Of a DNA stretch of 64,000 bases, positions 2,736 through 55,715 are shown piece by piece; the first letter of the stretch is position 1, and each line of letters begins with the position of its first letter. Made by a program: the position numbers and the translations under genes. Below the pieces are notes generated by a model. The model was not told the origin of the DNA. It saw only the letters and a list, made by a program, of their open reading frames with translations, and did no database searches. This DNA is from an uncultured Gammaproteobacteria bacterium (lineage in GTDB: Bacteria; Patescibacteriota; Microgenomatia; Daviesbacterales; UBA10151), in NCBI GenBank assembly GCA_964547465.1, contig CAZJNI010000004.1:19927-83926 (forward strand), written 5' to 3'.

Positions 2736-5700
2736 ATGTCTTTACAACTTGTTGATAATAAAACTATACGTAAATCATGGAATAAAGCACCCACTTTAAC
2801 CCCACAGCTAAACTTAATAAAAATTCAACTTGATTCATATAATTGGTTTCTAACAGAAGGTATAAGAGAAGTTTTGGATGAGATTTCCCCGGTTGAGGAT
2901 TTCACCGGCAAAAATTGGTCTTTGGAACTTGGAGGTTTTTCATTTGGTAAACCCAAATATACTCCGGATTTGGCAAAAGAAAAGGGCGTCACATATGACG
3001 CTCCTTTAAAAATTGAGGCTATTTTAGTTAATAAACAAACTGGCGATAGGGGTAAGCAAGAAGTTTTCTTAGGTGATATTCCCCAGATGACCGAGAAAGG
3101 AACCTTCATTATAAATGGGGTAGAAAGAGTCATTATTAATCAATTGGTCCGCTCTCCCGGAGTATTCTTTTCTGCAACTGATGATCCAATTACCGGAAGA
3201 AGGCTTTATTCAGCAGAGGTTAGACCATATAGAGGTTCCTGGTTGGAATTTTCAATTTCCCGAACCGGTGTTTTAACTGCCAAAATAGACAGAAGAAGAA
3301 AATTTGCGGCTACAACCTTACTTCGAGCTTTAGGCTTTTCAGATTCGGAGTCAATAATGCAGCTATTTAGTGATGTGGATACAACTGAAGATAAATATAT
3401 TGAAACAACTTTGAGTAAAGATCCAACCATAAACTCTGATGAAGCTCTTTTGGAAATTTTTAGAAAAATGCGTCCAGGTGATCCGGTTGTTTTGGATAAT
3501 GCCAAAGCTTTACTTGAAGGAATGTTTTTTAACTCCAGACGTTACAATTTAACAAAAGTTGGCAGGTTTAAAATTAACAAAAGACTGGGATTGGATATTG
3601 CAAATACTTTAGAGAATTGGATTTTGACCAATAATGATATTATTGCCACTTTAAAATATTTAATTAAATTAGCAAATGGTGAAGGAAAAGTGGATGATAT
3701 TGACCATTTAGCAAACAGAAGAGTCAGGTGTGCCGGGGAACTGGTACAGCAAAACGCCTTTAGGATCGGAGTTTTGAGACTTGAGAGAATTATTAAAGAG
3801 CGAATGAGCTTAACAACAGCTGATCAAGAACCCACCCCAGGTGGGTTAATTAATGCCAAACCGGTGATTGCTGCTATTAATGAATTTTTCCGCTCATCTC
3901 AACTATCCAGCATTTTGGATCAGGTAAATCCGCTATCTGAATTAGATCATTTAAGAAGATTATCTGTGATGGGTGCAGGTGGGATAACCCGTGATAGGGC
4001 CAGCTTTTCTGTCCGTGATATTAACCATTCTCAATACGGCAGGATTGATCCTATCCGTTCTCCTGAAGGACAAAATATTGGTTTGGTAACCTATTTAGCC
4101 CTTTATGCCAGAATTAATGAGTACGGATTTTTGGAAACTCCATATAGAAGGGTCGTTTTAGAGCGGGGTAAGCCCAGAATGACTGATGATGTAGTGTATA
4201 TTACAGCTGATGATGAAGAAGATTATCATATAACGGAGGCAACAGTTAACACCGATACAAAAGGTAATATTTTAGACGATCGGGTTCCCATCAGATATCA
4301 GGGAAATTTTTTTGAAGGGGAATCTAAACAGGTCTCTTTGATTGATATCTCACCTCAACAAATCTTTGGAACCTCAGCCGCTTTAATTCCATTTTTAGCA
4401 AATGATGATGCAAACAGGGCTTTAATGGGAACTCAAATGCAGTGCCAGGCAGTGCCTCTTCTTAACCCTTCTGCTCCAATTGTTGGAACCGGGATGGAGC
4501 GAATTGTGGCGGATAATATGGGAAGAGTTGTTAGAGCACCTGAAGATGGGGTGATAGTGGCTGTTGATGGTAAAAAACTTATTCTTGAAGGTAGGAAGGA
4601 TGAGTATAAATATGAGATAAAAAAATTTATCCACTCACCTCAAGGAACTTGTTATTCTCAAAAACCGGCTGTAAAGTTAGGACAAAAGATTAAAAAGGGT
4701 GATCTGTTAGTTGATGGTGCAGCTACCCAAAATGGTGAGTTGGCTTTGGGACAAAATCTTCTGATTGCTTACATGAGTTTTGAAGGATTAGGCTATGAAG
4801 ATGCTATTGTAATTTCAGATAGATTGGTTAGGCAGGATCTTTTAACTTCAATCCATATTGAGGAATATGAGGTTGATGTGGTGGAAACAAAGCTTGGACC
4901 GGAAGAACTAACCCGGGATATTCCAAACGTATCTGAAGATGCATTGAGAAACTTAGATGAGCGGGGAATTGTCAGTATTGGTGCTGAAGTTTTGCCAAAT
5001 GATATTTTGGTTGGCAAAGTTCAGCCTAAAGGTGAGACAGAGTTGACTGCCGAAGAAAGGCTGCTTCGTGCAATTTTTGGAGAAAAAGCCAAAGAAGTAA
5101 GAGACACTTCCTTGAGAGTTCCTCATGGAGAAAGAGGTACTGTAATTGGAGTTCAAATTTTATCCAGGGAAGAGGAAGATGAGCTGGATACAGGAACATT
5201 AATGAGAATTAAGGTTAAAGTTGCCCAAATGAGAAAAGTAACTGAAGGAGATAAGCTGGCAGGAAGGCATGGAAATAAAGGGGTTATCTCTCGAATCGTC
5301 CCGGTATCTGACATGCCGCATTTAGAAGATGGAACACCGGTTGATATTATTATTTCTCCCTTGTCTGTTTTATCCCGTATGAATTTAGGACAACTTCTGG
5401 AAACTCATTGGGGTTTTGCTGCAGAAAAATTGGGTTATAAAATTGCCGCCCCGGTTTTTGAGAAAATGCCGGAGGAAATGTTAATTGCCGAGCTTAAAAA
5501 GGCAGGTTTGCCTACTGATGGAAAAGTCAGACTGATCGATGGGAGAACCGGTCAGGCTTTTGATAACACTATTGTGGTTGGTAGAAATTACATCTTAAAA
5601 CTGATCCATATGGTGGAGGAGAAAATTCATGCCCGCTCCACCGGACCATATTCTTTAGTAACTCAACAGCCTTTGGGCGGAAAAGCACAAATGGGAGGAC

Positions 5701-16292: not shown

Positions 16293-16366
16293 GTCATTGC
16301 GAGCCCGAAGGGCGTGGCAATCTTATTAATAAGATCCTCACGTCGCTTCGCTCCTCAGGATGACAA
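16293..16366. repeat. Palindromic MITE-like element copy A (GTCATTGCGAG...CTCAGGATGAC)
   Basis: Shares termini and central GTGGCAATCTTATT/AATAAGAT core with 6 other copies. Confidence 0.8.
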
Positions 16367-16397: not shown

Positions 16398-16706
16398 ATG
16401 CCAAGAGGAAGAATCAGAGTAAAACTGAAAAGTTTTGATCACCGGGTACTAGATCATACCTGTGAATCCCTTTTGGATACAGCCCTTCGAACCGGAGCTA
16501 AAATTGTTGGCCCAGTCCCCTTACCTACAAAAATTGAGCGAATTACAGTTTTAACCTCCCCGCATACAGATAAAGATAGCAGGGAAGCATTTGAAATAAA
16601 AACCCACAAAAGAATGATTGATATAGTTGAGCCTACCCAAAAAACCATAGACTCCCTGATGCATCTTGAAATCCCGGCCGGAGTTGACATAGAAGTAAAA
16701 ATGTAG
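16398..16706 (+). CDS. rpsJ: 30S ribosomal protein S10
   Basis: S10 homology [15 protein letters not shown]..., 102 aa. Confidence 0.9.
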
Positions 16707-16723: not shown

Positions 16724-17287
16724 ATGGTAGAAAAGGGTCCACAGGTTACATGGAAAGAATATAATGAATGGTATCGGGCTACTCGTGATCAAAGGATTGA
16801 AGGGGAGCTAGCATATGGACAATGGCCTGAAGGAACACCACAAATCTTCATTGATTTAGAAAAGAGAATACCTTCTGAAGAAAGGTCAGATTGGCATCTC
16901 TTAGAGCTTTTTGCTGGACGACATCCGCGTAAGTGGAAATTTACAAGACCATCAATTGAAGAAATTTTAGCCAGACCTGCTGATTATGCAGCTATAAAAG
17001 AAGAAGAATCTAGAAAAAGAATAGAGGCAAGGGGAGGAAAATTATTAAAAGAGCAAGTGGAAGAGGTTTTGGATACTTTGACTGATAGAGAAAACAGAGT
17101 AATGAGGTTAAGATTTGGTTTAGAGGATGGTCGCTCTAGAACCTTAAAAGAGGCTGGTATTGAGTTTGGAATGGAAGTTAGAGGACAGGCCTATTCTGGG
17201 GAAAGAATTCGTCAAATAGAGGCTAAAGCTTTGCGGAAACTTAGACGTCCTTCAATAGTACAACCCCTTCAAGACTATTTAGCATAG
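16724..17287 (+). CDS. Sigma-70 region 4 (HTH) domain protein without region 2
   Basis: C-terminus [25 protein letters not shown]...[17 protein letters not shown] nearly identical to RpoD region 4.2; N-terminal ~110 aa unrelated to sigma regions 1-3. Confidence 0.6.
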
Positions 17288-17378
17288 AATTATTCCAGCC
17301 TGCACTTTGCTAATCCCACTTCGGGAGTGTGATTTTCAATTAAAGTGTACGATCGTACAAGTATAAAAACATCCCTTC

Positions 17379-17460
17379 GTCATTGCGAAGCCACGAAGTG
17401 GCTGTGGCAATCTTATTTCAATAAGATTCCCACGACTTACTTCGTAAGTCTCGGGATGAC
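17379..17460. repeat. Palindromic MITE-like element copy B
   Basis: GTCATTGCGAAGCCACGAAGTGGCTGTGGCAATCTTATT...AATAAGATTCCCACGACTTACTTCGTAAGTCTCGGGATGAC. Confidence 0.8.
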
Positions 17461-17746
17461 TAGTTAATATTTTTGTATAGATCCTTGAGGCTTGGATTAA
17501 ATTTACTAATTAATTTTTCTTTTGCTGCTCTATTCCAACTTTTAATCTGTTTTTCTCGCTCAATCGCAGTTTCTGGGTCATAATAAACTTCATAAAATAG
17601 AAGTTCATGAACCTGATATTTTTGGGTGAATCCTTTTACCAGATTATTTTTATGTTGCCAAACTCTTCTTAATAAGTTATTTGTGATTCCTGTGTATAAC
17701 ACTGTTCTAGTGAAGTTACTTAGGATATAGACATAATATTGTTTCA
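17460..17746 (-). CDS. GIY-YIG nuclease family protein (small, UPF0213-like)
   Basis: YYVYILSN...LYTGITNNLLRRVWQH GIY-YIG motif; ORF track extends to 17852 through a MITE copy, true start likely MKQYYVY. Confidence 0.6.
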
Positions 17747-17764
17747 TAAGATTATTATAGATAG

Positions 17765-17840
17765 GATCGCCACGCTTCGCTCGCGATGACGAGATAATAA
17801 GATTCCCACGGTCCGCCTTTGGCGGACCTCGGAATGACAA
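17765..17840. repeat. MITE-like element copy C (rearranged/right-half-rich)
   Basis: CTCGCGATGAC then AATAAGATTCCCACGGTCCGCCTTTGGCGGACCTCGGAATGAC. Confidence 0.7.
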
Positions 17841-17872
17841 TGGTGGGTGCATGCCGGCTATGCATCCTTAGC

Positions 17873-18112
17873 TCATTCAGCCAGATATCCTTTTATTTCT
17901 TCAACTCTTTGCTGAAAGTTTAAAATATCTTCAGGCCAAAGTAGAAATGAATTTCTCCTTCTTTCTCCGTTTTCTCCAACAAAAGCTGATTCTGTTATTT
18001 TTAGATATCTTTTATTATTGGAAGCAACGTAGCAATCAAAGAAGAAAGTTCTTTTACCGCACTTTAACGTAGAAGATTGAACTGGTTTCCTGATCTCTTT
18101 CTGTTTGTCCAT
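17873..18112 (-). CDS. PUR-alpha-like nucleic-acid-binding protein (DUF3276-like)
   Basis: KRTFFFD...NNKRYLKITE resembles PUR repeat/DUF3276 signature; 79 aa. Confidence 0.4.
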   Translation of the reverse strand: MDKQKEIRKPVQSSTLKCGKRTFFFDCYVASNNKRYLKITESAFVGENGERRRNSFLLWPEDILNFQQRVEEIKGYLAE

Positions 18113-18230
18113 GCCTGTATATTCACCCCCTTTCCTAAATCTCTGATTCCATAATTACATTACCCCAATAAAACCCTAATGTCAAGTAGGTCAAAATATA
18201 TCAACCCCGCTGAGCGGGGTCAATTTGCCC

Positions 18231-18353: not shown

Positions 18354-18392
18354 GAGTGAGCGCTCCAATAAAATGGGCCTCACTCTTTTTAA
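18354..18392 (+). promoter_or_regulatory. Leader hairpin + T-run (attenuator-like) immediately upstream of rplC start
   Basis: GAGTGAG-N20-CTCACTC followed by TTTTT, 12 nt before rplC ATG; preceded by second hairpin CGTCG-N12-CGACG. Confidence 0.4.
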
Positions 18393-18403
18393 TGGATAAA
18401 TTT

Positions 18404-19210
18404 ATGATAAGTACATTACTCGGTATAAAAAAGAATATGACCAGCACTTATGATTCTCGTGGCAGAAGAGTCGGGGCAACTGTGGTTGAAATTCAGCCAA
18501 ATTTAGTTACCCAAATAAAGACTAAAGAGGGAAAAGACGGCTACGGGGGGATACAGCTCGGGTTTGGAACAAAAAGGTCTGTTAAAAAACCCCAACTCGG
18601 ACTTGGAAAAAAAATAGGGGTAGATCAACCAATCCGCTGGTTTAGGGAAGTTAAAATTGAAGGAGATCCCTCGACTTCGCTCGGGACTATTCAGCCTGGA
18701 CAAGCAATTACACTTGACCAGGTTTTTTCAATAGGAGACGCAATAAAAGTTCAGGGGACTTCCAAAGGTAAGGGTTTTCAAGGCGGAGTCAGAAGACATG
18801 GCTTCCATGGCGGATCAAGAACCCATGGTCAGTCAGATAGAATGAGAGCCCCAGGAGCGATTGGTTCCGGAACAACTCCGGGAAGAGTTTATAAAGGTAA
18901 AAAAATGGCAGGACATATGGGTAATATTTCTGTTAGCACTAAAAATTTGGAAGTTGTAGGACTGGATAAAGAGAAGAATTTATTGGTTATTAAAGGTGCA
19001 GTTCCCGGAGCAACAGGGGGACTTGTAACATTAACAAAACTTGGTCGGGTTAAAGGTTATACTCCTCCGCCGGAAGAAAAGCCGGATGAAGAAGGTGAAG
19101 GGGAAAGCGTAAAGGGTGAAGAAAAGATAGAAGGTCCACAAGAAACAGTAGCACAGCAACCAGCTGAAGAAGTAAAAACTGAGGAGGTAAAGACAGATGC
19201 CAAGAGTTAA
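18404..19210 (+). CDS. rplC: 50S ribosomal protein L3 with ~55 aa acidic/Lys C-terminal extension
   Basis: MISTLLGIKKNMTS... aligns to L3 N-terminus; ORF opens earlier at 18356 in leader; tail PPPEEKPDEEGEGES...EEVKTEEVKTDAKS. Confidence 0.9.
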   Translation: MISTLLGIKKNMTSTYDSRGRRVGATVVEIQPNLVTQIKTKEGKDGYGGIQLGFGTKRSVKKPQLGLGKKIGVDQPIRWFREVKIEGDPSTSLGTIQPGQAITLDQVFSIGDAIKVQGTSKGKGFQGGVRRHGFHGGSRTHGQSDRMRAPGAIGSGTTPGRVYKGKKMAGHMGNISVSTKNLEVVGLDKEKNLLVIKGAVPGATGGLVTLTKLGRVKGYTPPPEEKPDEEGEGESVKGEEKIEGPQETVAQQPAEEVKTEEVKTDAKS

Positions 19211-20006
19211 AAAAAATTCAAATACTACGTCATTGCGAGCCCGCGAAGCGAGGCGTGGCAATCTCATTAAAAAGATTGCTTTGTCGTCAAAGACTCCTCG
19301 CAATGACAGGAGGATTTCTACCCGAGTCAGTTTATCTGTACCAGTGTGTTCATTAGCAGGTAGAGCTGCTGGAAATTTATCACTCCCTAAAGAATTTTTT
19401 GGAGCAGAGGTTAACAAAAAACTTTTAGCTCAAGCGCTAAGAGTTTATACAACTAATCAAAAAAGTTTAACCGGTAATACTAAAACCCGAGGTGAGGTTG
19501 AAGGGTCAACTGCCAAAATTTACAGACAAAAAGGGACAGGTCGGGCCAGGCATGGTGCAATCAGGGCTCCAATATTTGTTGGAGGAGGAATTACTTTTGG
19601 TCCTAAGGAGAGGAAAGTAAGATTAGATCTCCCCCAAAAAATGAAAAAATCTGCGCTAAAGTCTGCGCTGTCCTCTAAAGTAATAGATAAATCTGTAATG
19701 GGATTGTCTGGAATCGAGAAAGCATCAGGTAAGACAAAAGAAATAGCGAAATTAATGTATCAAGTATCAAGTATCAGGTATCAAGGGAAAGATAAAAAAT
19801 CTAAGAAGATTACCAGTACATTAATTGTAACAGGAGATAAGGTAGATAATATACTTCGTGGAGCTAGAAATATTCCAGGGGTTGATATTTTAACAGTTAA
19901 TTTAATTAATGCTTATGAGGTAGCAAGACATGATTTGCTACTTATTACCAAAGAAGCTGTAGATGTTTTAAGCGGAAAGGGTAAAGCGGAAAGGGTAAAG
20001 TTATGA
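19197..20006 (+). CDS. rplD: 50S ribosomal protein L4 (true start possibly in-frame GTG ~19344 downstream of MITE copy)
   Basis: QKGTGRARHGAIRAPIFVGGGITFGP L4 core; first ~50 codons of ORF are encoded by the MITE copy. Confidence 0.85.
   Translation: MPRVKKNSNTTSLRAREARRGNLIKKIALSSKTPRNDRRISTRVSLSVPVCSLAGRAAGNLSLPKEFFGAEVNKKLLAQALRVYTTNQKSLTGNTKTRGEVEGSTAKIYRQKGTGRARHGAIRAPIFVGGGITFGPKERKVRLDLPQKMKKSALKSALSSKVIDKSVMGLSGIEKASGKTKEIAKLMYQVSSIRYQGKDKKSKKITSTLIVTGDKVDNILRGARNIPGVDILTVNLINAYEVARHDLLLITKEAVDVLSGKGKAERVKL
19229..19307. repeat. MITE-like element copy D (inside annotated 5' end of rplD ORF)
   Basis: GTCATTGCGAGCCCGCGAAGCGAGGCGTGGCAATCTCATT...CTCCTCGCAATGAC. Confidence 0.8.
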
Positions 20007-34343: not shown

Positions 34344-34541
34344 TTAGAAATCCGCTCTATGAGGTCCGAGATCTTTAAGAACACTATTTAAAAACCAACA
34401 TTCTTGGGAAGGATGATTTCCTACTCCGACAGGATGATCTCCATTGGAGCATGGACAGTTCCACCAGGTTACATGCGTACTGCGCTTGCCTTCCTTATAT
34501 CTAATCTTCTTAAGCCGTCTTATTATTTCACTATTTTTCAT
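34344..34541 (-). CDS. hicA: HicA-like toxin (mRNA interferase)
   Basis: MKNSEIIRRLKK...GKRSTHV...GNHPSQE...LNSVLKDLG matches HicA pattern (GSHH...HP..E...LR.ILKQ.G). Confidence 0.55.
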   Translation of the reverse strand: MKNSEIIRRLKKIRYKEGKRSTHVTWWNCPCSNGDHPVGVGNHPSQECWFLNSVLKDLGPHRADF

Positions 34542-34552
34542 CTGGAATAAGC

Positions 34553-34948
34553 TTAGGAGTTTATGAAAGCACCATTTCTATAATTTTGATTGAATAATAA
34601 GAATGCAGGCAGATTAATCTTAGAGATAAGTGGGGTTAAAGGTCTTGACCGTTCGGATTGTAATTTTGCTAAAGTTTGTTCTTTATGAATAATTTCCGCA
34701 TAGATCTTCCAGTATTTTTTAGGAGCTGGTCTATTCAGTAATTTTACAGATAATTTGTTTTCTAAAACATTACTAAGATAAGACTGTGTTACATCTTGAA
34801 TGCACTCTCTGGCTTTTTCTAATGTCTTGGCACTGATAATAAGGCCGAACTCTAAGCATACGGCAATATATTTTCCTTTATCTTCGTATATAAATACGCG
34901 AGCTCTACCAGATACAAAAGTATTATTAAAAATTAATTGATTTTTCAT
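34553..34948 (-). CDS. hicB: HicB-like antitoxin (UPF0150/RNase H-like fold N-domain)
   Basis: FIYEDKGKYIAVCLEFGLIISAKTLEKARECIQD resembles HicB N-domain; immediately upstream of hicA on same strand. Confidence 0.5.
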   Translation of the reverse strand: MKNQLIFNNTFVSGRARVFIYEDKGKYIAVCLEFGLIISAKTLEKARECIQDVTQSYLSNVLENKLSVKLLNRPAPKKYWKIYAEIIHKEQTLAKLQSERSRPLTPLISKINLPAFLLFNQNYRNGAFINS

Positions 34949-42286: not shown

Positions 42287-42357
42287 CGGGGAGTAGTATA
42301 GTGGTAACACGCCGCGCTGGGGGTGCGGCATCGGGAGTCCGATTCTCCCCTCCCCGA
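42287..42357 (+). tRNA. tRNA-Pro (anticodon GGG), atypical T-loop TCCGATT
   Basis: Hand-folded cloverleaf: acceptor CGGGGAG/CTCCCCG, D-arm AGTGGTA loop, anticodon stem CCGCG/TGCGG loop CTGGGGG, T-stem GGGAG/CTCCC, discriminator A. Confidence 0.55.
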
Positions 42358-42443
42358 CACAACATGCTATGTATCCATACGTAAGTACGCTAAATAATTT
42401 TGGGGTATTGACACCTTTGGGATATATTTGGTAATTTAAATTT

Positions 42444-55384: not shown

Positions 55385-55391
55385 ATTTTTT

Positions 55392-55715
55392 GCCTAGGAA
55401 GAGGGTAAGCCAGATTCTGTTTCAAGATGATCATTTATCTAGACTGTGATTTTTAATGTCACATCTTCCGCCAGTCGGCGGATGCTCCTTATTTAAACTA
55501 TTAAGCGAGCAGCTTAGTTTTTTCTAGGATTGCAGCGGGGAGGATTGCCACGTTTCACCCGAGCTTGACCCCGGTTCGTCACTGTTGCTCTATACTCTGT
55601 CTTACGACCGTCCGACTTACGCCGGACACCCTGCTCTATGCTGTCTGGACTTTCCTCCCGTTCAAATTTCTTTTAGAAATTTGCGCGGGCGATCATCCTT
55701 CTTCCTAGGCCGATA
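55392..55715 (-). ncRNA. rnpB: RNase P RNA (bacterial type A-like, compact)
   Basis: Minus strand contains GGAGGAAAGTCCAGAC...CATAGAGCAGGGTG (CR-I/P4), GGGTGAAACGTGG (CR-II-like), AACAGAATCTGGCTTA (CR-V/P4 3' strand); P1 GGCCTAGGAAGAAGG/CCTCTTCCTAGGC; upstream TTGAAT-17-TAAAAT promoter at 55722-55751 on minus strand. Confidence 0.75.

Follow-up and report, generated by a model that had tools for sequence, protein, structure and literature searches.

A protein family of the Candidate Phyla Radiation joins sigma region 4 to a helix resembling the RNA polymerase flap tip

The contact between region 4 of the sigma factor (sigma-4) and the tip of the flap of the RNA polymerase (RNAP) beta subunit works as a switch for -35 recognition and promoter escape, and many phage and host regulators act on it. 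To our knowledge, every known manipulator of this contact binds one side of it. In the holoenzyme, the flap-tip helix (FTH) is clamped by sigma-4, and E898, L901, I905, F906 and G907 of the helix are contact residues (PMC6755090). T4 AsiA, Rsd, T4 gp33 and Thermus phage gp39 target this interface, reprogramming or inhibiting initiation (PMC6755090; PMC3950348). Chimeras of sigmaA4 and the beta tip have been built to mimic the holoenzyme contact, and in these the tethered FTH docks on sigma-4, either intramolecularly or in a swapped, intermolecular arrangement (PMC10245118). Stand-alone Sigma70_r4 proteins are already known, as are split sigma factors, in which the sigma domains lie on separate polypeptides and a sigma-4 protein without sigma-2 can work in initiation (PMC7826278). 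Here, we describe a gene at 16724..17287 (+) in a 64,000-nt stretch of contig CAZJNI010000004.1 from an uncultured member of the Daviesbacterales (the window), whose product combines a sigma-4 domain like that of group-1 sigma factors with an N-terminal domain (N-domain) that, in the family to which it belongs, carries a close replica of the FTH.

The gene is an uninterrupted open reading frame (ORF) with an ATG start, and it encodes a complete protein of 187 aa plus stop that Pfam, NCBIfam and a hidden Markov model (HMM) of the family identify as a sigma-4/flap-tip-mimic family member. Its sole Pfam domain is Sigma70_r4 (PF04545; aa 115–174, E 7.7e-12, 45 bits with a cut-off of 24.1); the Pfam models for regions 2 (PF04542) and 3 gave no match even at E<=1, and region 3 (PF04539) produced no signal by Pfam or hhalign. 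The NCBIfam RpoD models align to aa 91–186 only, equivalent to the final ~90 RpoD positions (E 1.4e-28). When the window was searched by tblastn with B. subtilis SigA, the sole match was 16994–17281 (56% identity over SigA 282–370, E 5e-24), profile-profile comparison paired aa 96–187 with SigA 287–371 at 99.8% probability, and S. aureus sigmaA domain 4 is 66–67% identical to aa 105–187. Region 4, comprising 4.1, 4.2 and the C-terminal tail typical of group-1 sigmas, was placed at 17036..17284 (+) by Pfam, NCBIfam, tblastn, hhalign and Foldseek. It is preceded by a charged linker helix (aa 88–104; 16985..17035, +), assigned from hhalign and AlphaFold2 (AF2), that leads into a remnant of region 3.2/4.1.

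An AF2 model built from eight sequences was poor, with a predicted local distance difference test score (pLDDT) of 63, whereas a model built from 36 family sequences reached a pLDDT of 88.2 and a predicted template modelling score (pTM) of 0.65 and is all-helical, with 11 helices. In Foldseek comparisons with the PDB, the C-terminal half of the model superposes on sigmaA domain 4 with a root-mean-square deviation (rmsd) of 1.1–2.4 A; full-length sigmaA chains align colinearly along the entire query, yet with an rmsd of 18–20 A. The closest structural matches include several engineered sigmaA4-beta-flap-tip chimeras and S. aureus sigmaA domain 4 bound to phage G1 ORF67.

A preliminary description, made from the window alone, had reported a protein with region 4 but not region 2 and had quoted the C-terminal sequence found in this ORF; both observations were borne out. 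It called region 4.2 near-identical to that of RpoD, which is accurate for the recognition helix, where a 15-residue stretch is identical, but overstated for the whole domain (56% identity to SigA). It also allowed for an upstream frameshift or assembly error that, once corrected, would restore regions 2–3. This was excluded: rpsJ ends at 16706, only 17 nt upstream, so no frameshift could restore these regions, and relatives of the protein start identically, with MVEQGPQVTW in common. A sigma region 4 without region 2, carried on a non-sigma N-domain, means that the protein cannot serve as a sigma factor by itself, in keeping with the earlier suggestion that it cannot initiate transcription. 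No genuine rpoD was found within the 64-kb window, either by tblastn with SigA or by applying a sigma HMM to the ORFs.

The N-domain (aa 1–87; 16724..16984, +) is family-specific and all-helical in the AF2 model, and had no match in Pfam, PDB, PHROG or PADLOC. Three elements stand out in the family alignment: an aromatic helix, W-x-x-Y-x-x-W (16751..16771, +), in which W10 and W16 are nearly invariant; a loop, GQWPEGTP (16817..16840, +), with nearly invariant G32, P35 and T38; and the FTH-like segment, IPSEER[SDWH]LLELFAGR (16868..16921, +), in which a 4-aa insert interrupts the family consensus T.EERLL..IFGE. Pfam matched the N-domain in none of 23 members, and no PDB profile was significant. 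The domain had been described as unknown, and this stands as far as Pfam is concerned, but in the family it carries a motif with a recognizable counterpart.

That counterpart is the FTH. The best-conserved N-domain motif, T-x-E-E-R-L-L-x-x-I-F-G-E, resembles the beta flap-tip helix (E. coli TPEEKLLRAIFGEK, residues 896–909) with identical spacing. An N-domain HMM trained on 42 sequences, none of them RpoB, matched the RpoB encoded in the window only at aa 789–806 (TELTAEERLLRAIFGEKA; 5037..5090, +; i-E 1.4e-4). Aligned with RpoB chains of the PDB, the 2LY7 flap domain and the 6IDO RpoS-FTH chimera, this segment proved to be the flap tip, the genome's own version of the element that the family N-domain appears to imitate. 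RpoB was also the best non-family match among the 1746 ORFs (147 thousand aa) of the window and the related loci. With hhalign, the N-domain alignment matched flap sequences over 18 columns at 87.8% probability (P 3.3e-6), compared with P 0.0085 or worse for any part of RpoD. A strict version of the motif is present in 18 of the 42 members, and elsewhere in the same ORFs it occurs only in RpoB. Segments of 30 aa from two relatives (P0002 and P0153) were searched against 177,635 distinct PDB sequences; all of their matches fell at the FTH (43/43 and 22/22, respectively; best E 0.009), exclusively in RNAP beta subunits or sigma4-FTH chimeras. Nine FTH positions (T896, E898, E899, K/R900, L901, L902, I905, F906 and G907) are conserved in 27–35 of the 42 members, and 903 and 904 vary. 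By sequence, then, the family N-domain carries an FTH-like motif that is a close replica of the beta flap-tip helix.

Two other origins for the N-domain fared less well. MAFFT and the Foldseek colinearity hinted at a degenerate sigma region 2.3–3.1, which hhalign did not support (P 0.14); the N-domain HMM scored RpoD without region 4 (regions 1.2–3.2) at 0–4 bits, equal to shuffled controls. A duplicated sigma 4.1 was rejected at P 0.0085, approximately 1000 times worse than the flap match, and the T-to-FG spacing of the motif fits the FTH, not region 4.1.

These comparisons bear on the possibility that the protein is an ordinary helix-turn-helix (HTH) regulator, with the sigma-4 fold as its DNA-binding domain, the N-domain serving dimerization or ligand sensing and the likeness to the flap being coincidental. 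HTH domains like Sigma70_r4 occur in many regulators, the recognition helix of the family has the generic form S-x-R-T-V-x-R, and one member (P0156) has a weak match to GerE (17.7 bits, below the Pfam cut-off of 23.5), although the window protein has no GerE match. However, the sigma-4 half is specifically group-1-like, with region 4.1 and an HPSRS..L.DYL tail, the PDB-wide motif search returned flap-tip helices exclusively and the conserved positions coincide with known FTH contacts. We therefore regard this explanation as rather improbable.

The protein had been taken for an orphan, but it belongs to an old, conserved family of ~40 representative clusters with a common two-domain layout. A word-indexed search found seven full-length relatives with 44–61% identity (P0002–P0006, P0008 and P0022), the closest family members are 52–68% identical to the window protein and the window ORF matches the family N-domain HMM at E 2.3e-24. 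When the N-terminal ~100 aa alone were used in an exhaustive HMM search, 40 representatives were recovered at E<=1e-3, 17 of them at E<=1e-10, where a representative stands for a cluster at 50% identity. The broad N-domain alignment was too diverse to yield a search pattern; scans for further loci gave one locus only from genome contigs and none from the metagenome scan. Members come mostly from metagenomes of the Candidate Phyla Radiation (CPR)/Microgenomates and are unannotated. Nearly all are 130–230 aa long and run from the N-domain through a charged, variable linker to a sigma region 4 of group-1 type, in which the HPSRS..L.DYLE tail is often kept; of this anatomy we are highly confident. 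Ratios of nonsynonymous to synonymous substitution rates (dN/dS) of 0.12–0.37 among the close relatives, in both halves, show that the family is under purifying selection. A recent partial duplication of rpoD, which the preliminary description had raised as something to test for, does not agree with the age of the family or with this selection; only a ~60-nt patch over the recognition helix of the window copy is secondarily RpoD-like.

Three members carry an extra unannotated domain of ~140 aa (35% identity, E 1e-17; loci L008 and L009) that the window lacks. P0002 and P0004 have it at the N terminus (aa 1–160 in each) and P0156 at the C terminus (aa 196–336). Two further, GC-rich proteins, P0173 and P0175, which are 'hypothetical proteins' from JGI samples, have the N-domain without sigma-4 and a weaker flap-like motif (TTRERITGAVFGD).

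Column-by-column comparison showed that the family retains an RpoD-like region 4.1, the RFGLxDGRSRT loop, the ALxKLRxP helix and often the C-terminal tail. It differs at positions 584–589 (E. coli numbering), the -35-reading positions of sigma-70 according to established genetics and structures, with contacts made by R584, E585, R588 and Q589. Here, the family has a generic S-x-R-T-V-x-R-I-E helix with the consensus P/x, R, T, V, R/G, R. The combination of RpoD-like non-DNA surfaces with changed -35-reading residues is what would be expected of a decoy that avoids promoters, a soluble imitation of sigma-4 and flap tip that absorbs phage or toxin proteins attacking region 4 (proteins like AsiA or phage G1 ORF67) and so protects the host; the presence of the S. 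aureus sigmaA domain 4-ORF67 complex among the closest structural matches would also fit. On the other side, PADLOC matches just the sigma-4 part, the window has no defence-island context, we know of no anti-sigma factor from a CPR phage and the toxin-antitoxin genes that adjoin some members (see below) are common neighbours throughout CPR genomes. A decoy role therefore seems to us quite improbable.

Another explanation would use the same altered helix differently, and it is the one that we tentatively favour, although somewhat short of being persuaded. The tethered FTH-like helix of the N-domain would dock in the sigma-4 groove of the protein itself, in cis or swapped between copies, giving a 'sigma-4 head' that stands free and would be stable in the absence of polymerase. 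We propose self-docking because the engineered chimeras with a tethered flap-tip helix dock on sigma-4. The self-capped head might then act off polymerase, most likely as a regulator or competitor that binds -35-like or related DNA through its altered recognition helix; the gene would, in the Daviesbacteria lineage, be transcribed with rpsJ. We infer the docking, the DNA binding and the regulatory role from sequence and from a structural model. The preliminary description had instead suggested that the protein could bind the beta-flap tip of the polymerase; with a flap-tip replica in its own N-domain, this appears less likely than self-docking.

The two halves could also act in trans. That the protein is a natural CPR chimera of both sigma-4/flap-tip partners working on other molecules, as a wedge or as a decoy for phage factors, with its dose tied to the rpsJ operon, is conceivable but doubtful. 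As a two-sided wedge or anti-sigma, its FTH-like helix would grip the housekeeping sigma-4 and its own sigma-4 would cap the polymerase flap tip, leaving sigma-4 uncoupled from the flap and -35-dependent initiation shut down. Both halves closely replicate the two interface partners, the members that consist of an N-domain only (P0173 and P0175) suggest that this domain can work without a tethered sigma-4, intermolecular swapped FTH docking has been seen in an engineered chimera and co-transcription with rpsJ would couple dose to growth. However, a covalently tethered partner should out-compete partners in trans, one cis contact would be traded for two trans contacts with no obvious energy gain and the altered recognition helix of the family would be left unexplained. 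Such a wedge is, in our judgement, unlikely.

Several observations weigh against the self-docking, DNA-binding head. The FTH match spans just 18 columns, and a short amphipathic helix could resemble the FTH through convergence or coincidence. No DNA target of the family was found, and no conserved partner gene or neighbourhood was found outside Daviesbacteria in the related loci examined. The window copy itself fits less well than its relatives: its FTH-like segment keeps L901, L902 and G907 but has F and A at the equivalents of I905 and F906, and a phmmer search with this segment against the PDB gave no match. Its FTH-like helix has gained 4 aa and its HTH turn 7 aa, and the copy may have a different mode of action or be undergoing decay.

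The window copy is a singleton and an atypical, mosaic and remodelled member, with inserts in both functional helices of its sequence. Nucleotide identity to its closest relatives is 0.7–0.9 and drops to 0.3–0.47 in two patches, at 16865–16945 (the FTH-like helix) and 17165–17225 (the HTH turn and the start of the recognition helix). The patches coincide with the two functional helices of the protein, and there are three lineage-specific insertions. In the first patch, the 4-aa insert yields PSEER[SDWH]LLELFAGR, and RKWKFTR has been added by partial tandem duplication of the EEILTRP codons, such that the protein reads ...KWKFTRP followed by SIEEILARP. In the second, a 21-nt insert encoding EVRGQAY (17174..17194, +) lies in the HTH turn; it is unique to this genome among the protein search matches, and the net insertion is 7 aa, not 6 aa as had been reported. 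It is followed by an RpoD-like recognition helix (17195..17245, +), delimited by comparison with RpoD and the relatives, in which the R584 equivalent is lost (G at 584) and E, R and Q are kept at 585, 588 and 589. In this RpoD-like patch, 17–18 of 22 residues match RpoD, compared with 9–11 of 22 for the closest relatives, and the last 60 nt are again ~92% identical to one relative's locus (L007). Because the RpoD-like stretch is flanked by family-like sequence, with these 3' 60 nt so close to L007, the pattern suggests a short gene-conversion tract from rpoD.

The singleton status, the lineage-specific insertions and the low identity over both functional helices could also reflect a decaying remnant or an assembly chimera in this genome. 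However, the frame is intact, the start and C-terminal tail are conserved, dN/dS relative to the other members is 0.25–0.30 and the AF2 model is confident; furthermore, a simple mis-join would not yield an RpoD-like patch with family-like sequence on both sides. We consider decay or misassembly very unlikely.

The window covers an rpoBC-rpsLG-fusA-tuf-S10-spc ribosomal region, and the names borne by the clusters of its EF-Tu and S10 place the organism in Candidatus Daviesbacteria (Microgenomates). The gene immediately 5' of the sigma-4 gene is rpsJ (S10/NusE; 16398..16706, +). No terminator-like site lies in the 17 nt between them and the spacers are conserved (TATAAA...) among relatives, so the sigma-4 gene is probably co-transcribed with rpsJ. 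The first terminator-like hairpin occurs ~100 nt past the stop of the sigma-4 gene, within a palindromic repeat at 17375..17450 for which a hairpin scan found terminator-like hairpins on both strands; this repeat is the probable end of a tuf-rpsJ-X transcript, where X is the sigma-4 gene.

The repeat is an imperfect palindrome of ~75 nt (GTCATTGCGA...GGCAATCTTATT/AATAAGAT...), present in four copies (16293–16365, 17375–17450, 17790–17850 and 19225–19290) within 3 kb, around rpsJ, the sigma-4 gene, a GIY-YIG gene and the rplC/rplD junction. Its core 12-mer occurs six times (1.2 expected). The repeat extends across the 5' ends of the GIY-YIG and rplD ORFs as called mechanically; their real starts are probably further in. 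The repeats were considered as a binding target for the protein and dropped, as they are absent in all 25 related loci.

Linkage to rpsJ is a constant feature of the Daviesbacteria subclade. The gene follows rpsJ with a 13–17-nt spacer in L001–L009 and in the window: P0022 and P0003 are directly 3' of rpsJ with a 17-nt spacer, as in the window, and P0002 and P0004 begin 13 nt past an S10 C-terminus. In other Daviesbacteria with an identical S10, the rpsJ-rplC gap holds either a 105-aa sigma-4-only protein (L016, L017 and L023; 2836–3153 / 1393–1710) or a 98-aa predicted membrane protein (L018–L022). The 105-aa proteins occupy the same position as the window gene, and their sigma-4 is nearer to this family (hhalign E 6.8e-10) than to RpoD (3.4e-5), but they lack the WPEGTP/FTH-like N-domain. 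The differing occupants point to a variable slot that repeatedly houses sigma-4-type genes.

Outside Daviesbacteria, the settings are diverse. In a Microgenomates metagenome-assembled genome (L012; JACQJR010000001.1, 2001–11992), the member follows a HicB-like gene in a nusA-infB-x-hicB-[gene]-rpsO-pnp cluster, again a housekeeping information-processing operon. Another member lies upstream of a hicB-hicA pair (L010), those of L011 and L015 adjoin transposases and a stand-alone member (L024) is near divIC, an integrase and a PIN gene. Across the family, toxin-antitoxin-type genes adjoin several members (an 85-aa + DUF2283 pair, HicB/HicA and HicB-like genes), at L001 10529–11028, L008 1114–1613, L010 1052–1557, L012 5480–5719 and L013 213–452. 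Residence in variable slots beside toxin-antitoxin genes, transposases and integrases is a further point in favour of the decoy; these neighbours could be functionally linked or merely share such slots. No viral or plasmid relatives were found in IMG/VR, BFVD (E<=1e-3), INPHARED phages or PLSDB plasmids, and PADLOC (MzaA) and PHROG matched the sigma-4 part only, with none on the N-domain. A phage, plasmid or defence origin was therefore dropped.

The same loci are relevant to a split sigma subunit of the SigO-RsoA type, in which the protein would read the -35 element in trans, with a region-2-only partner or in place of host region 4. Such factors exist (PMC7826278), and here region 4 is complete and region 2 lacking. 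However, no sigma-2-like partner and no conserved neighbour gene were found, and an FTH supplied by the protein itself would prevent it from docking on the polymerase flap. When every ORF of the window and of 15 loci was scanned with a sigma 2–3 HMM, the single match was a chance one, in a HicA-like ORF. We judge this explanation highly improbable.

The chance match, at 34344..34541 (-), was discarded as a partner candidate because the ORF encodes a HicA-like toxin beside a HicB-like gene. The two form a pair at 34344–34948 (-), the HicB-like member having a weak UPF0150 assignment, and the HicA-like ORF matched sigma 2.2–2.3 at E 0.002 among the 1746 ORFs.

Two opposite-strand genes (17460–18112, -) split the S10 operon between the sigma-4 gene and rplC; one encodes a GIY-YIG nuclease (E 2.7e-16), the other a DUF3276 protein (E 4.5e-9), and 18195–18224 holds a promoter-like site together with a hairpin. 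In the rplC ORF (18356–19210, +; 284 aa), the C terminus is extended by a long acidic, lysine-rich stretch (PPPEEKPDEEGEGES...KTEEVKTDAKS), which is atypical of L3. The only two Rfam matches at gathering level in the window were RNase P RNA class A (55390–55708, -; 123 bits) and tRNA-Pro(GGG) (42287–42358, +).

We found no report of a natural protein that joins sigma region 4 to a flap-tip replica, nor any in the CPR literature; coverage of the literature was incomplete, so the missing reports are absence of evidence only. All functional statements made here derive from sequence and modelling. If they are correct, the protein would be the first of cellular origin known to mimic the two sides of the sigma-4/flap-tip contact, and a conserved cellular family with replicas of both sides would represent a new mode of regulating or protecting initiation. 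The family would be a natural, ready-made counterpart of a tool that structural biologists engineered, and it adds a defined, testable candidate function to the large pool of unannotated CPR proteins. The Daviesbacteria rpsJ-rplC gap likewise emerges as a recurrent home of sigma-4-type genes.

Compared with the known systems, the window protein shares its sigma-4 fold, region 4.1, HTH and C-terminal tail with region 4 of the group-1 sigmas RpoD and SigA but, unlike them, has no regions 1.2–3.1. The family also departs from RpoD in altering the -35-contacting positions 584–589, and the window copy in adding the 7-aa insert in the HTH turn and lacking an equivalent of R584. Split sigma factors such as SigO-RsoA likewise have sigma-4 without sigma-2 on one chain, whereas the family has a group-1-like rather than extracytoplasmic function (ECF)-like sigma-4, an extra FTH-like domain and no partner gene that we could find. 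AsiA, Rsd, gp33 and gp39, which are of phage origin or belong to stationary phase, each bind a single side of the interface and are unrelated in sequence and fold to the family, which imitates both sides. The family motif agrees with the RNAP beta flap-tip helix itself over ~18 residues, except that 903/904 vary; nothing else of the flap domain is present, and an insert splits the motif in the window copy. The nearest parallels are the engineered sigma4-beta-flap-tip chimeras (7KUF/7KUG, 8CWR/8CWT, 8D5V, 3T72 and 6IDO), which rank among the top structural and sequence matches and likewise link sigma-4 and the FTH in a single chain. These are artificial, with the FTH C-terminal to sigma-4, whereas the family is natural, with its FTH-like helix N-terminal, inside a helical domain of ~87 aa, and with docking predicted.

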